Source: a virus. Taken from it: a DNA stretch of 23,864 nucleotides. A program made the translations under genes and the position numbers. Of the stretch, positions 11,501 to 23,794 are shown piece by piece. Position 1 is the first letter of the stretch. Each line of letters begins with the position of its first letter. The notes under the pieces were generated by a model, which was given only the letters and a program-made list of their open reading frames with translations, was not told the origin of the DNA and did no database searches. The stretch lies in IMG/VR virus record IMGVR_UViG_3300021088_000102; one strand, 5' to 3'.

Positions 11501-11866
11501 TTATGGGCCAACACACGTGTTCCTGCTTTTGATGGTTAGTATACCTTCTCGTTTGGCTTTCCCTATCTCTAGTTGGGCTATTTCGTGAGCAGTAAGAGGT
11601 CCTGGGACACAAGCTCGATTAAACCTTACGTCGGTTAATAGTTCCCTAAACATATGCCAACTAGGTGATCCTTTTTGCTGGAATCCTGGTAGTGCTAAAC
11701 AAGCTTCCCTTTTATCAAAAAGCTCTTCATTTATATAAATCCATATTGTAGGACCATAAGGTCTCAGGGTAAAATCAGTCCAGCCTCCACGAATAAGATC
11801 CTCTAACTGATGTTCATCTTTTATTCGGTGCCAGCCTGTTCTATCAGTAACTAGCTGCCAAGACAT
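11501..11866 (-). CDS. hypothetical protein
   Basis: 121 aa. Overlaps the NADAR gene end by 23 nt. Confidence 0.5.
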   Translation of the reverse strand: MSWQLVTDRTGWHRIKDEHQLEDLIRGGWTDFTLRPYGPTIWIYINEELFDKREACLALPGFQQKGSPSWHMFRELLTDVRFNRACVPGPLTAHEIAQLEIGKAKREGILTIKSRNTCVGP

Positions 11867-12302
11867 TACATTCGCCTCTTATTTTCATTAATATTCTACC
11901 TAGATGATTCTGGCCAGGTATACCTTGATGTTTCAGACAGGTACAATCACCCCAGAACTGGTCGTGCCAGCTATTACCTTCTATGATTATAGCTTGGCCT
12001 GTTTTGAGTAATTGAGCTCGTAAAACAATAGTCTGGAACTTCTGTCTTACTAGATCTTCCATAATATTAACTTTAATATGATCCCAATCTTCTCTCAACT
12101 TGAGCGTTTGGCCTAATTTCTTAGCATCACCTGCTGTAAAACCGAGAGCTGTGAATAGTTTACGCTCATCAGGAAATATGGTCTTTGCAGCTTGATACGC
12201 GTGCTCACAAGAAGAATAATATACTTCATCTAGCTTTATCATGCACGGCCAGAAGTTAGAAAGATATCTATATTCATTTTGGAATCTATTTATTATTAAC
12301 AT
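11844..12302 (-). CDS. NADAR domain protein (YbiA-like, DUF1768)
   Basis: Motifs EYRYLSNFWPC ... CEHAYQAAK ... W..QF. ATG at 12302. The ORF track extends to a TTG at 12311. Confidence 0.75.
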   Translation of the reverse strand: MLIINRFQNEYRYLSNFWPCMIKLDEVYYSSCEHAYQAAKTIFPDERKLFTALGFTAGDAKKLGQTLKLREDWDHIKVNIMEDLVRQKFQTIVLRAQLLKTGQAIIIEGNSWHDQFWGDCTCLKHQGIPGQNHLGRILMKIRGECNVLAASY

Positions 12303-12456
12303 TAGATTCAATATATCCTTTCTTATCTAGAAGCTCTGTTATTAATGCCATTTGTTCGTTGTATAACCTGAGTACCGTAGCTCTGTATTCCAATATTTTC
12401 TCTACAGAAGCATTTTCCAGTACTTTACGAATTACAGTTGTCATATCTTTTGACAT
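12286..12456 (-). CDS. small acidic helical protein (56 aa)
   Basis: MSKDMTTVIRKVLENASVEKILEYRATVLRLYNEQMALITELLDKKGYIESNVNNK. GAGGT RBS 7 nt upstream. Below the ORF-track cutoff. Confidence 0.45.
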   Translation of the reverse strand: MSKDMTTVIRKVLENASVEKILEYRATVLRLYNEQMALITELLDKKGYIESNVNNK

Positions 12457-12466
12457 TATTTACCTC

Positions 12467-12589
12467 TTATCTATAAGGAATAAGCCAGGATGGTTTGAGA
12501 GGCCAATCTAAATACTCGTATTTACCTGAAAATGATAAACGAATCCAAGTACTATAAGCAGTTACCGATCTTCTTACCCACCATTTCAT
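12467..12589 (-). CDS. MKWW-family mini-protein (40 aa)
   Basis: MKWWVRRSVTAYSTWIRLSFSGKYEYLDWPLKPSWLIPYR. ATGA overlap with the upstream member. Confidence 0.5.
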   Translation of the reverse strand: MKWWVRRSVTAYSTWIRLSFSGKYEYLDWPLKPSWLIPYR

Positions 12590-20976: not shown

Positions 20977-21095
20977 TGTAGTGTAATACCACCGCTATCA
21001 TGAGTTTGTGTAGATGTAGAATTGTTCTCCTCATACACAAATAGCACACCCAGTGCCAAAAGAAGCAAAATAGTAGCTAAGATTCGATATTTCAT
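20970..21095 (-). CDS. small membrane/secreted protein (41 aa)
   Basis: MKYRILATILLLLALGVLFVYEENNSTSTQTHDSGGITLQ. AAGGAG RBS 9 nt upstream. ATGA overlap with the upstream gene. Confidence 0.4.
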
Positions 21096-21868
21096 CGAGT
21101 TTGGCTCCTTACTTTCTCTCGCGTGTCGGCTGGTATAGAAATTGTACTTGATCCAGTACTTTCTGGCAATTGAGCTGGCTCAGATACAGACATCATGATT
21201 GAATCTGGATCGGTGTCGGCTTCAACACTTAATTCAGATACAGCAACGTTAAACTTATGTGTAATAGAATCAAATGAAACTTGCTTGATAATATCTTGGA
21301 AGGCTTTCTTCTCCAAGCTACCGGCAAGCTCAGTGCAGGCATGAGCGGCACATGCCATATCATAAATGGCTTTGCCTTTGTCAATTTGATCATGATATAG
21401 CTTGGCTTCTTGCTTAGCAATCTTCTGCTTCTGCTTTTGCCTAGCTAATACCAGTTCCATCTTCTGCTCAGCCATCTGATATTGACTTACTTCAGTCGGA
21501 TATTTGGCTGCATAGTAGTTCATTTTAGTCTTGAAGTCTTCCATGCGAGCCTGGAATTGAGCTATCTTCTGATCTTTCTCACCAATAATGCGCATGTTAT
21601 CTTGATAAATATTAAGCATGCTTTCAATTGGATTCTTCTCAGCTTCGTTTAGCATAAGTTTCATGCTAAAGTTAGCTAGTTTCATTGCGAACACTGGTGC
21701 TAGGTGAACAACTGTAAGACCAATGGCACCTGCGATGACCAATCCAATTAACCCAGCGATTGCATGTACAATAATAAAGGAGGCTAGAAAACCAACTCCT
21801 AATCCTGCTCCCCATTTTATTGCAGTAGCAATCTTCTGTTTACGTATATCATCTTCTACTTGAGCCAA
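21092..21868 (-). CDS. membrane-anchored coiled-coil protein
   Basis: 258 aa. An N-terminal Gly/Ala-rich TM hairpin (GLIGLVIAGAIGLTVVHLAPVFA) is followed by a long coiled coil. Confidence 0.55.
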   Translation of the reverse strand: MAQVEDDIRKQKIATAIKWGAGLGVGFLASFIIVHAIAGLIGLVIAGAIGLTVVHLAPVFAMKLANFSMKLMLNEAEKNPIESMLNIYQDNMRIIGEKDQKIAQFQARMEDFKTKMNYYAAKYPTEVSQYQMAEQKMELVLARQKQKQKIAKQEAKLYHDQIDKGKAIYDMACAAHACTELAGSLEKKAFQDIIKQVSFDSITHKFNVAVSELSVEADTDPDSIMMSVSEPAQLPESTGSSTISIPADTREKVRSQTR

Positions 21869-23334
21869 AGTTCCCCCTTTTCGACTTCCGCTCGTTGACG
21901 AAGGTCATCAAGATGAGGTTCATTGTAAATAACCCCATTCTCAAAACGAGTTTTTAGATATCCAATGTTATCAAAGAAGTGTGGTGTATTTACTTCCTTT
22001 TTGAACTTCTGATACTCTTGCTGATTAGTTCCTTCTTGGAATTCCGAGTGATAGTCAAAGAATTCTTCTGTGTTAATGGTTGTGAATGTCTTTGTGGATT
22101 CACTCTTCATTAAGAGTAGTCTACCACGTTTTGATTCTTTTCCCGTGGCAGTTTTGTATACATCATGCCATTTGCCAGCACGACGAATGGCAGAACATTT
22201 AAATGCAAATTGCTGAGTATCTCTATCTAGCTTCTGCAATAAAGCCCCGCCCATACCAAAGGTAATATTATCAGCTGACCATCCTTGCCATTTCATTGTA
22301 TCAAGAATACGTTCAATAGTGGAGGGATTAACTCCATCTCCTTGAATAATGCGAACATGAAGGTCAAGCAATTTAAAACCCTTACTATTCTGAATTGTAC
22401 CAAACTTATCTCCCAGAATAGATAGTACTTTTAGAACTGTAGGTGCAGGATCTCCAGAGTCTGGCCTAATTACCAAAACTCCGTCCCTGGCTAGCACACG
22501 ATCTTTCAGTTGCGTTCCCCACAGTTCCGAACATGCATGGAATATGTCATAGCTATCACTGACACAAGCCACTAAACCTGTTGGATATTGATTTAGCATA
22601 TTGTCGTATGCTTCTAGCTCATGATCTCTACCCCAGCTGGTAATTGTACTATGTTCAGAAGCGGGAATAGAAAAACCCGGCATCTTTGTCGAATGGTAGT
22701 AGTGCTTCAACAAGTTTATACCTACCACCGTATCCGTTCCACTGAAGTTTACTAAGTGAGCCGCCCCACCAATGGCTGCGGATTCTTCTGAAGACACGCC
22801 ACGGTACCCAAAGTCGTGAAGCTTGAACATTAAAACGTCGGGTGAACCTGTTAATTCTAGGTACTTTAGGATAATTCTTTTTACTTCTCTCGACTGAGTT
22901 GCTACAGTTGTTGGATACCATACTTTCAAAAGTAGGCTCTCCACATAGTTTGTCAGCCATGGTACCTCTGGATCAGTGTTCTCAACAGTCATTAAAACGT
23001 TCTTTACTGGCACTACAGTGCCTTCTGGGACACTTTTAATCAATAATGGTAGTTTACCACCATGTTTCTTTAGAATGAGCTCCCAGCCCCTTCTATTGAA
23101 TAAGTCTTGTCCAAAATGGGCTTTACAGAAATCATCAGCCTCATCTATATCATGCTGGTTAAACAATGGACCTTCGAGGTATTTCTTTAGATAATACTGC
23201 AGGCCAAAGAAAACAGTATAATCATATAAACCTCCTCGAGCTTCCAGATAACTATAGACAATCTCGGTATCTGGAGGATATTGTCGGCTATGTGTAAGCT
23301 TATAAGAATCTGTACGTAATAGAAAATTATCCAC
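21856..23334 (-). CDS. nadV: nicotinamide phosphoribosyltransferase (NAMPT/NadV)
   Basis: 492 aa. MDNFLLRTDSYKLTHSRQYPP ... VENTDPEVPWLTNYVE ... KLHDFGYRGVSS ... RPDSGDP ... IQGDGV is colinear with eukaryotic and bacterial NAMPT. Confidence 0.9.
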   Translation of the reverse strand: MDNFLLRTDSYKLTHSRQYPPDTEIVYSYLEARGGLYDYTVFFGLQYYLKKYLEGPLFNQHDIDEADDFCKAHFGQDLFNRRGWELILKKHGGKLPLLIKSVPEGTVVPVKNVLMTVENTDPEVPWLTNYVESLLLKVWYPTTVATQSREVKRIILKYLELTGSPDVLMFKLHDFGYRGVSSEESAAIGGAAHLVNFSGTDTVVGINLLKHYYHSTKMPGFSIPASEHSTITSWGRDHELEAYDNMLNQYPTGLVACVSDSYDIFHACSELWGTQLKDRVLARDGVLVIRPDSGDPAPTVLKVLSILGDKFGTIQNSKGFKLLDLHVRIIQGDGVNPSTIERILDTMKWQGWSADNITFGMGGALLQKLDRDTQQFAFKCSAIRRAGKWHDVYKTATGKESKRGRLLLMKSESTKTFTTINTEEFFDYHSEFQEGTNQQEYQKFKKEVNTPHFFDNIGYLKTRFENGVIYNEPHLDDLRQRAEVEKGELWLK

Positions 23335-23794
23335 TTACGGCTCCTTCTTTCTCTGTATAAGTATACTTCATAACATAATCTGCATGTGATTGTACCCAGC
23401 TTTGTAGCATAATAAGGAATTTCTTGTGACAAGGTTCCATGTTGTTTTCTGTCAACTCATTCAAAATAAACCATTTAGTCTCTGCTGCATCATCTCCTGC
23501 TTGTGCAGCTCCATATAAGTAAGGTACATAGAATAGCGAAGAAGCTATTCCAATGCCACTTTGTTTACCCCGCCAATCTGGAATGATTCCATCACTACCA
23601 ATATAAACAGGAGGTCCTATTTCCAGGCCTGTTTCTTCTCGGACCTCACGAGAACAAGCATTCTCAAGACTACTATCTGTACCTTCTAGTTTACCTCCGG
23701 GAAAGCGCCAATTCAATTCATTGGATTTTCTAATTAGAAGTACTTGTAGTCCCACTTTAGATTGATGTTTTAGGACTGCCCCATCTACACACAT
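23327..23794 (-). CDS. Nudix hydrolase (NatV-like C-terminal domain, likely ADP-ribose pyrophosphatase, part of NAD salvage)
   Basis: 155 aa with Nudix box GGKLEGTDSSLENACSREVREETGL. Overlaps the nadV start by 8 nt. Confidence 0.75.
   Translation of the reverse strand: MCVDGAVLKHQSKVGLQVLLIRKSNELNWRFPGGKLEGTDSSLENACSREVREETGLEIGPPVYIGSDGIIPDWRGKQSGIGIASSLFYVPYLYGAAQAGDDAAETKWFILNELTENNMEPCHKKFLIMLQSWVQSHADYVMKYTYTEKEGAVSG

Follow-up and report, generated by a model that had tools for sequence, protein, structure and literature searches.

NARP2, an NAD+ reconstitution pathway, consists of the nicotinamide phosphoribosyltransferase (Nampt) of phage KVP40 together with a nicotinamide mononucleotide (NMN) adenylyltransferase (Nmnat), is carried by about 1.1% of phages and, in the form of the KVP40 pair, does away with defence by type I Thoeris and DSR2 (bioRxiv 10.1101/2024.02.11.579819). 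In the same study, an Nmnat was also encoded by 94% of the phages with a KVP40-type Nampt. For the NADAR-domain proteins, guanine-linked ADP-ribose is removed in vitro by every subtype tested, YbiA included (PMC11125620), some members reverse the ADP-ribosylation of cytidine (PMC12945103), and AdfN-Bas32 neutralises DarT1 and gives three phages back their plaquing on DarTG1 hosts (PMC11825919). The pairing of an NAPRTase with a HIGH-nucleotidyltransferase-Nudix protein, NADAR, Macro domains and Thg1-containing RNA repair have all been described in jumbo phages by Iyer et al. (PMC7824862). The present analysis concerns the IMG/VR virus record IMGVR_UViG_3300021088_000102, a stretch of 23,864 nt that is referred to in its entirety as the window, and within it a nadV gene, a neighbouring Nudix gene and a NADAR gene. 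The phage is considered, with a probability of about 0.75, to carry two independent NAD+/ADP-ribose modules of known kinds: a NARP2-type pair made up of a truncated natV-like gene (natV') and nadV, and a stand-alone, AdfN-like NADAR.

The natV-nadV module at the window edge

The window is a one-strand gene array with a GC content of about 40%, and its long open reading frames (ORFs) all lie on the minus strand, to which the window coordinates given below refer. The three genes named by the original prediction (nadV, Nudix and NADAR) were confirmed, coordinates included, by Pfam and NCBIfam matches far beyond chance. The nearest database relatives are the uncultured huge phages LR756500-LR756504 and LR756511 (460-735 kb), at 42-58% protein identity, and no nucleotide-level match to the 12-kb region that holds the three genes was obtained by megablast among 50,697 phage records; the window DNA comes from a large uncultured phage related to these huge phages. 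By synteny, the closest relative is a group of contigs (L001-L003) that carry the best NatV homologue (P0001, 54% identity). Tblastn alignment showed the window and L001 to be collinear across the whole backbone, with identities of 54% for NatV, 68% for NadV, 57% for the Rnl1 RNA ligase, 35% for o116, 34% for o56 and 47% for NADAR, and, further along, 58% for o149, 32% for o118, 57% for o90, 61% for a metallophosphoesterase and 66-67% for a protein resembling single-stranded DNA-binding proteins (SSB-like). The order in L001 is a 310-aa natV, nadV, the Rnl1 ligase gene directly after nadV, a 114-aa ORF, a small ORF and NADAR. Relative to L001, the window has two insertions of its own, at 19123-21868 (membrane and binding proteins) and at 12815-16632 (Thg1-like, vault-like and SpoU genes).

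The nadV gene (21856-23334, GTG start) encodes a nicotinamide phosphoribosyltransferase with the Pfam domains NAMPT_N (E 3.8e-35) and NAPRTase (E 1.7e-57), and scores 591 bits against the NCBIfam model PRK09198 (cut-off 405) and 531 bits against phrog_448. The solved human-type NAMPT 6tac is matched with 499 bits, and the stretches LHDFGYRGVSS and PA(S/A)EHSTIT are kept; more distant PDB entries (9w5x and 9ke8) are matched with about 220 bits. The first stretch and EHSTIT are taken here to hold the nicotinamide-specificity Asp and the phospho-His of human NAMPT. Identity to phage NadVs is 42-58%; for Vibrio phage nt-1, presumed to be KVP40-like, the figure is 42% across 98% of the window protein. 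Its features are those of the Nampt of NARP2, a KVP40-clade enzyme that uses phosphoribosyl pyrophosphate (PRPP), and not those of the Namat of NARP1; no PRPS-like Adps gene was seen among the window ORFs scanned.

Immediately upstream lies a natV-like gene (23327-23864), of which the window holds the 3' part, encoding the linker and the Nudix domain, of ADP-ribose/NAD pyrophosphatase type, of an NMNAT-Nudix protein, as judged from the open frame, Pfam and homologues. The Pfam NUDIX domain is at 23327-23794 (E 7.8e-12), and the gene had been listed as an ORF of only 155 aa from the ATG at 23794, with the NMN adenylyltransferase (NMNAT) perhaps encoded by a separate gene upstream. Translation to the last full codon shows that the frame contains no stop between this ATG and the window edge. 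The 23 residues that precede the ATG, PRESKDFRAGIIYSSYSLPSTIV, align with a motif common to 13 homologues, DFRAG(V/I)IY, in which R8, A9, G10 and I12 never vary and D6 and F7 hardly do. All but one of the 13 aligned homologues have a length of 293-310 aa, the exception being a 254-aa protein from a 1.3-kb contig; likewise, the 19 best matches to the 178-aa fragment all have lengths of 293-310 aa, with the exception of one protein of 254 aa (1.3-kb contig). Several of these matches bear the source name 'bifunctional NMN adenylyltransferase/nudix hydrolase', and stand-alone Nudix proteins of about 150 aa appear as distant matches only (E >= 1e-9). Similarity to the best homologues begins at residue 1 of the fragment, as it does in the tblastn alignment to L001, and 12/13 homologues reach about 150 residues further towards the N-terminus, where they carry GRFQ..LHEGH (containing the HxGH motif) and, in most cases, SGTExR, both of which are signatures of NMNAT-type nucleotidyltransferases. 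Within the Nudix domain, the core R72-E73-x2-E76-E77-T78-G and the residues G56 and G57 are invariant in the family alignment, and the window has an intact REVREETG. Moreover, the family profile matches both domains of the NadM-Nudix structures 2QJO (E 2e-28) and 2QJT (E 1e-26). Because the frame is open and the family motif precedes the ATG, the natV-like feature reaches at least position 23863 and is truncated by the window. Judged by its homologues, the 155-aa Nudix protein is an artefact of the window edge and the real gene is an edge-truncated fusion, and the NMNAT is very probably the missing N-terminal half of the same ORF, outside the window, and not a separate gene.

The two genes overlap by 8 nt (GTGGATAA), with the GTG start of nadV lying over the natV stop, and the overlap in L001 is the same. 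A natV gene adjoins nadV in LR756502 and LR756504 and in phages MD18, DSS3P8, V10 and RpAliso, and it is upstream of nadV in all five of those in which the order was compared. Linkage was also counted in a sample of 17 IMG/VR loci with NadV relatives (42-56% identity), 12 of which have a full-length NatV-like gene upstream of nadV on the same strand and within 6 kb. The natV-nadV pairing is general.

Domains, family fusions and synteny thus agree with the proposal that NadV and the Nudix protein represent NadV/NatV-type (NARP2) salvage, and the window pair is most likely a NARP2-type NAD+ reconstitution pathway that is, by analogy with its homologues, most likely complete. NadV would condense nicotinamide and PRPP to NMN, which the NMNAT half of NatV, outside the window, would adenylate to NAD+. 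The Nudix half, inside the window, would convert ADP-ribose, and possibly excess NAD(H), to AMP and ribose-5-phosphate, so that ADP-ribose would be removed and the ribose-5-phosphate could feed PRPP synthesis; the substrate preference assumed here (ADP-ribose, possibly NAD(H)) is said to stem from work on KVP40 NatV by Lee et al. in 2017. With natV upstream of nadV, the two would probably be translationally coupled, as suggested by the overlap. The rebuilt NAD+ would allow phage replication despite depletion of NAD+ by TIR- or SIR2-type effectors (Thoeris, DSR2), and NAD+ would also be raised in hosts that lack such defences. Both the enzymatic activities and the counter-defence role are put forward by analogy with the characterised systems.

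The NADAR-domain protein

The NADAR gene (11844-12311) encodes a predicted nucleic-acid ADP-ribosylglycohydrolase of 155 aa, counted from a TTG at 12311; an ATG at 12302 is an alternative start. The protein has the Pfam NADAR domain (E 5.1e-24), scores 130 bits against phrog_1017 and belongs to the short, extension-less type, with about ten residues before the core. NADAR homologues are carried by 563 phage records. By BLASTP, the window protein is most similar to NADARs of the huge phages LR756511 (50% identity, 144 bits) and LR756501 (49%, 130 bits), followed by that of the T5-like Salmonella phage UTK0009 (45%, 122 bits) and AdfN-Bas32 (40% over the full length, 99.8 bits, E 3e-32); E. coli YbiA is matched with 31% identity and 60.8 bits, and T4 AdfN (gp30.3) gave no BLASTP match. 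AdfN-Bas32 was identified by tblastn as bas32_0066 of phage IrisVonRoten, which the BASEL paper equates with Bas32.

The Glu and Lys of the catalytic pair (E36 and K43) are invariant in alignments with YbiA, T4 AdfN and AdfN-Bas32; the corresponding pair is E43/K50 in PnNADAR and E36/K43 in T4, the two T4 gp30.3 residues being those that Johannesman et al. mutated. At E <= 0.01, 8bau is the one solved chain with a NADAR name that was matched; the phmmer alignment to it is one residue out of register near E36, a discrepancy resolved by the E-x6-K spacing and by MAFFT alignments. Residues E111, D117 and W120 correspond to E125, D130 and W133 of PnNADAR (chain numbering offset +2), so that the set by which AdfN proteins are recognised, a Glu/Lys pair with an acidic residue, an Asp and a Trp, is present. 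The third acidic residue, E111, is the Glu of the YbiA type, as it is in AdfN-Bas32, and not the Asp of DarG1, and T4-type phage NADARs have a His at this position (PMC11543638).

The protein is most likely, on its sequence relationships, an AdfN-type glycohydrolase directed against DarT1. It would strip ADP-ribose from guanine, and perhaps cytosine, in phage nucleic acid, an action that would neutralise DarT1-like ADP-ribosyltransferase toxins, as AdfN proteins do. The anti-DarT reading first proposed for this gene is in keeping with the retained catalytic residues and with a closer relationship to AdfN-Bas32 than to YbiA; neither a loss of those residues nor a clustering with YbiA proper (31% identity, as against 40% to AdfN-Bas32) was observed.

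A small Cys-rich insertion follows the FWG motif at residues ~122-128 in the NADARs of the window (CTCLKH), L001 (CSCPKC) and LR756501 (CTCEAC). AdfN-Bas32, the T5-like phage NADAR and YbiA lack this insertion, which may form a metal-binding knuckle.

Gene order and competing readings

The original prediction placed all three genes in the same long operon and described the region as a concentrated anti-defence island that also contains tRNA repair genes. The single strand and the overlapping junctions are as expected of an operon; in addition to natV/nadV, overlaps occur at nadV/o258 (13 nt), Rnl1/o52 (20 nt) and o116/Thg1 (20 nt). NADAR, however, lies 9.5 kb downstream of nadV, with at least 14 ORFs between them (nine of at least 52 aa and about five mini-ORFs beginning with MKWW), and terminator-like hairpins number 16 on both strands together, as against 8.0 +/- 3.2 expected, with strong minus-strand hairpins at 13418-13391, the strongest, which stands between nadV and NADAR, and at 11453-11422. 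Promoter-like sequences are no more numerous than after shuffling. A NADAR gene occurs within 10 kb of nadV in 1/17 IMG/VR loci and in the closest relative, L001/L002, and an Rnl1 gene in 4/17. A general linkage of NADAR with nadV was rejected on this count, and the linkage is a property of this lineage only. Given the lack of conserved linkage and the terminator-like hairpins, the NAD module and NADAR are treated as separate units within a shared array resembling early genes. Nor are the intervening genes recognisably anti-defence: they encode a TAXI-like binding protein, membrane proteins, a vault-protein homologue, a SpoU methylase, a Thg1-like enzyme and an Rnl1 ligase, and the island claim is accordingly not upheld. 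PADLOC returned weak candidate-family matches for NADAR and the Nudix protein in the window and nothing else.

The RNA repair genes among them are an Rnl1-type RNA ligase with its KxDG motif in EKLDGS (17284-18474; RNA_lig_T4_1 E 9e-20, phrog_562 211 bits), a Thg1-like 3'-5' nucleotidyltransferase of the kind active in tRNA 5'-end repair or maturation (15874-16632; Thg1 E 1.9e-29, phrog_4717 283 bits) and a SpoU/TrmH-family RNA 2'-O-methyltransferase (12815-13369; SpoU_methylase E 5.4e-15). Together with the metallophosphoesterase these bear out part of the tRNA repair claim, but no polynucleotide kinase was detected by Pfam in the unannotated window ORFs scanned, even at E <= 1. A single anti-defence operon or island under common regulation, extending over all 12 kb and uniting NAD+ salvage, NADAR and tRNA repair, is improbable. 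The strand, the many overlapping start/stop junctions, a promoter-like count not above that of shuffled sequence, and the backbone order natV-nadV-rnl1-o116-o56-NADAR kept in L001/L002 speak for it, but they are set against the low recurrence of NADAR and Rnl1 beside other nadV genes, the excess of terminator-like hairpins inside the array, the missing kinase and the window-specific insertions, for which no role in defence is known and for which neither PADLOC nor Pfam gave a defence match.

Several points weigh against the reading of the two modules as a complete NARP2 pathway and an anti-DarT1 glycohydrolase. The NMNAT half lies beyond the window edge, so that completeness of the pathway is inferred. 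The NCBIfam equivalog models for bifunctional NMNAT/Nudix proteins (PRK05379 series) give 36 bits for the fragment and 57-81 bits for full-length homologues, short of cut-offs of 354-449, and P0001 has no tblastn match in Vibrio phages at E <= 1e-5, and hence no match to a KVP40-type NatV; with scores so far under the cut-offs and no Vibrio-phage match, the protein is filed by architecture as a divergent NatV member. The NADAR bears the Glu of YbiA where DarG1 has Asp and passes, marginally, the TIGR02464 model for 'riboflavin intermediates N-glycosidase' (81.1 bits; cut-off 73.7). YbiA and T4 gp30.3 hydrolyse guanine-linked ADP-ribose in vitro but do not rescue cells from DarT1 (PMC11125620), so that conserved residues do not predict the physiological target. 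NARP2 also raises NAD+ in the absence of any defence system (bioRxiv 10.1101/2024.02.11.579819), which leaves room for a purely metabolic role. As for TIGR02464, E. coli YbiA scores 169.5 bits, the T5-like phage NADAR 76.5 and the L001 orthologue 53; the model was discarded as a marker of YbiA function, since the T5-like relative, which is 60% identical to AdfN-Bas32, passes too and YbiA scores twice as high, so that a match does not discriminate.

The metabolic alternative holds that natV and nadV mainly raise the supply of NAD+ in nutrient-poor hosts, with any effect on defence incidental. It is favoured by the increase in NAD+ and the consumption of PRPP by NARP2 in defence-free cells (bioRxiv 10.1101/2024.02.11.579819), by the wide occurrence of NAD+ synthesis genes in jumbo phages, which have been read as conferring metabolic autonomy (PMC11662467; PMC7824862), and by other host-like 'autonomy' genes in the window (tRNAs, RNase P RNA, peptide deformylase and a glutathionylspermidine-synthase-like gene). 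Nevertheless, the KVP40 pair abolishes Thoeris and DSR2 defence experimentally, and the window ORFs scanned showed no phage enzyme that would consume NAD+; the metabolic and the counter-defence role are compatible, and a mainly metabolic function is regarded as possible, though distinctly the weaker proposition. Far less credible is a stand-alone, 155-aa Nudix ADP-ribose pyrophosphatase starting at 23794, with its NMNAT encoded further upstream. An ATG is present there, the ORF listing starts with it, and 23 stop-free codons could arise by chance with a probability of about one in three, but those codons encode a linker motif that is invariant or nearly so in the family, the tblastn alignments to L001 begin at the first residue of the fragment, and the close homologues are all NMNAT-Nudix fusions, with stand-alone Nudix proteins only distantly related.

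It has also to be considered whether NADAR acts on RNA or tRNA, in concert with a module of RNA ligase, Thg1 and RNase P, or on a small molecule, in N-glycosidase housekeeping of the YbiA kind, instead of on DNA in opposition to DarT. The gene stands between those for the Rnl1 ligase and the RNase P RNA, in an order kept in L001/L002; the superfamily was first tied to NAD+ metabolism and RNA processes (PMC11543638; PMC7824862); the ADP-ribosyltransferase (ART) toxin ScARP has RNA among its targets besides DNA, and the cytidine modification, too, is reversed by NADARs (PMC12945103); and the marginal TIGR02464 pass points the same way. However, collinearity in two related phages is not evidence of functional coupling, the protein scores 99.8 bits against the validated AdfN-Bas32 but only 61 against YbiA, its TIGR02464 score of 81 bits compares with 169.5 for YbiA, and no riboflavin genes are found near it, all of which make such a target unlikely. 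A broader version, in which the series natV-nadV-rnl1-...-NADAR-RNase P RNA is a coherent island that keeps translation alive, with NAD+ rebuilt, damaged tRNAs re-ligated, 5'-repaired and methylated, a minimal RNase P of its own and NADAR acting on RNA or tRNA, is more doubtful still; if it were true, the phage RNase P ribozyme would mature the phage's own tRNAs or escape host control. The preferred reading is thus that of a NARP2-type natV'-nadV pair and a separate, AdfN-type NADAR.

Neighbouring features and known systems

Downstream of NADAR, the window contains a compact bacterial type-A RNase P RNA of 270 nt (10996-11265), which matches Rfam RF00010 with 106.3 bits (gathering score 100; E 6e-32) over model positions 1-367. 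In the region of the specificity (S) domain, 97 model positions are reduced to 18 nt, and P18 is absent. A syntenic copy of 261 nt (126.3 bits) is present at 14120-14380 (+) in L001 and at 13160-13420 (+) in L002. Between the window and L001 copies, 20 of 63 predicted pairs are changed on both sides and none is broken, and, as the alignment is read, P4 contains a compensated A-U pair. Searches for relatives with blastn in the 50,697 phage records, with Rfam over 150 kb of LR756500, LR756501 and LR756511, and with nhmmer in the loci of the 17 NadV relatives gave no match. When IMG/VR was scanned with 17-mers, the ten loci obtained held only tRNAs or nothing above Rfam gathering scores. No earlier description of a phage-encoded, S-domain-reduced RNase P RNA of bacterial type was found in the literature, and this RNA is the item in the window most worth independent follow-up. 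Three tRNAs are predicted by ARAGORN, tRNA-Ile-UAU (93 nt, 5051-5143), tRNA-Arg-UCU (8465-8541) and tRNA-Leu-UAA (9581-9667), and all read A-ending codons. The first is an ARAGORN prediction only, with no Rfam call even at E <= 0.05; it could be an unusual tRNA, one with an intron, or a false call.

Mini-ORFs of 32-45 aa, arranged in tandem so that stop and start overlap, are found at 18437-19115 and 12467-12830, and such arrays fill apparent non-coding gaps at 18475-19122 and 12457-12814. Each starts with MKWW or MSWW and is highly basic and aromatic, and (V/I/L)(V/I/L)xYPR(K/A) is a frequent motif. The sequence ATGANNTGGTGG has six exact matches, compared with 0.05 expected. Synonymous Lys codons vary among the mini-ORFs, a pattern that favours selection acting on the protein. 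No PHROG family is matched by these mini-proteins, which are multi-copy in L001/L002, with eight copies of 31-54 aa in L001 (2936-4280 and 7567-7800, plus strand), two of them directly upstream of natV.

The insertion at 19123-21868, between nadV and rnl1, is specific to the window. It encodes a 258-aa protein with two transmembrane segments and a coiled coil (phrog_27316), whose start overlaps the nadV stop, a 91-aa ORF, a 191-aa membrane protein and a TAXI/NMT1_3-like periplasmic binding protein with a signal-peptide-like N-terminus (phrog_6856). A role of these genes in precursor uptake is conceivable, and none is PnuC-like. The gene at 13433-15853 encodes an 806-aa homologue of the major vault protein (MVP), with Vault_3, the MVP shoulder and a coiled-coil tail, that matches solved MVPs at E 5e-15. 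Among the 50,697 phage records, it is shared only with LR756500, LR756501 and LR756503 (42-43% identity); earlier preprints describe MVP homologues from bacteria and from viruses, phages included (10.1101/2023.11.10.566534; 10.1101/872010).

The metallophosphoesterase (5989-6537; phrog_547) is of the YfcE/MJ0936-like type. A related gene lies within 10 kb of natV/nadV in 8/17 IMG/VR loci (the loci entered being L008, L011, L013, L016-L019, L021 and L036); it adjoins natV in LR756500 and is directly upstream of natV in L017. This recurrence suggests a link of the metallophosphoesterase to NAD/ADP-ribose chemistry or to the healing of RNA ends. Its assignment as a phosphatase of the NAD pathway (aRES/Adpp) was dismissed, as Adpp is a Macro-domain enzyme of NARP1 and not relevant here. 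Further genes comprise a cupin/cysteine-dioxygenase-like protein (10321-10770) and, at 600-8139, downstream host-like genes for a GSP_synth protein (E 2e-144), a peptide deformylase, a MoxR-like AAA ATPase and the SSB-like protein.

When set beside the described systems, the salvage module resembles the KVP40 NadV-NatV pair of NARP2 in combining a Nampt-type NadV with an NMNAT-Nudix fusion gene, for which the same chemistry and role are predicted. It differs in that the NatV-like protein belongs to a shorter (~300 aa), divergent branch, that natV and nadV overlap and are probably translationally coupled, and that the NMNAT half is outside the window. The two-domain architecture is also that of the NadM-Nudix proteins of Synechocystis (slr0787, 2QJO) and Francisella (2QJT/2R5W), both domains of which are matched by the family profile; HxGH and SGTxxR-type motifs occur in the homologues of the window protein, and the REx2EE core of the Nudix domain is intact in the window itself. 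These are, however, cellular housekeeping enzymes of ~340-350 aa, and their likeness to the window family is at the profile level only. The T4-type system of tRNA repair combines Rnl1 with Pnkp; the window has an Rnl1 and a metallophosphoesterase, and no kinase domain was detected at E <= 1 in the ORFs scanned.

For NADAR, the closest characterised counterpart is AdfN-Bas32, which is likewise a short, extension-less protein (149 aa, as against 155 aa) with the same E/K pair and a common active-site stretch, IEGN(T/S)W(G/H)D, including its Glu; it comes from another phage family, probably with a host of another phylum, and the CTCLKH insertion is found in the window protein. The NADAR fold and the Glu/Lys pair are shared with DarG1 of E. 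coli C7 and G. lovleyi and with AdfN-T4 (gp30.3), the T4 residue numbers being identical. Nevertheless, AdfN-T4 has no detectable pairwise similarity to the window protein, and a His is described at the position of the third acidic residue in T4-type phage NADARs. DarG1 has an N-terminal basic DNA-binding extension that is absent from the window protein (the Glu being residue 36, as against 88 in E. coli C7; PMC11543638) and an Asp in place of Glu111, and ORF scans and PADLOC revealed no darT1 or other ART gene in the window, so that the protein does not conform to DarG1. With YbiA (2B3W), the protein shares a core fold without extension, the YbiA-type Glu and a marginal TIGR02464 pass, but similarity is limited to 31% identity and 61 bits, and neither the LexA-controlled dinG/rhlE operon nor riboflavin genes surround the window gene.

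NARP2, AdfN and the NAD/ADP-ribose systems of jumbo phages are already published, and the locus is a new, divergent example of NARP2 and of an AdfN-type NADAR, not a new system. Its practical value lies mostly in the correction of an annotation, a 'short Nudix' protein being an edge-truncated fusion, and in the caution that a common strand and proximity are not evidence for one operon; the compact RNase P RNA and the arrays of MKWW mini-proteins are the less usual features of the window. The locus enlarges the set of phage tools that would act against immunity based on NAD+ and ADP-ribose by a divergent NatV branch from huge phages and a new NADAR related to AdfN-Bas32, two kinds of tool that co-occur in one uncultured lineage.

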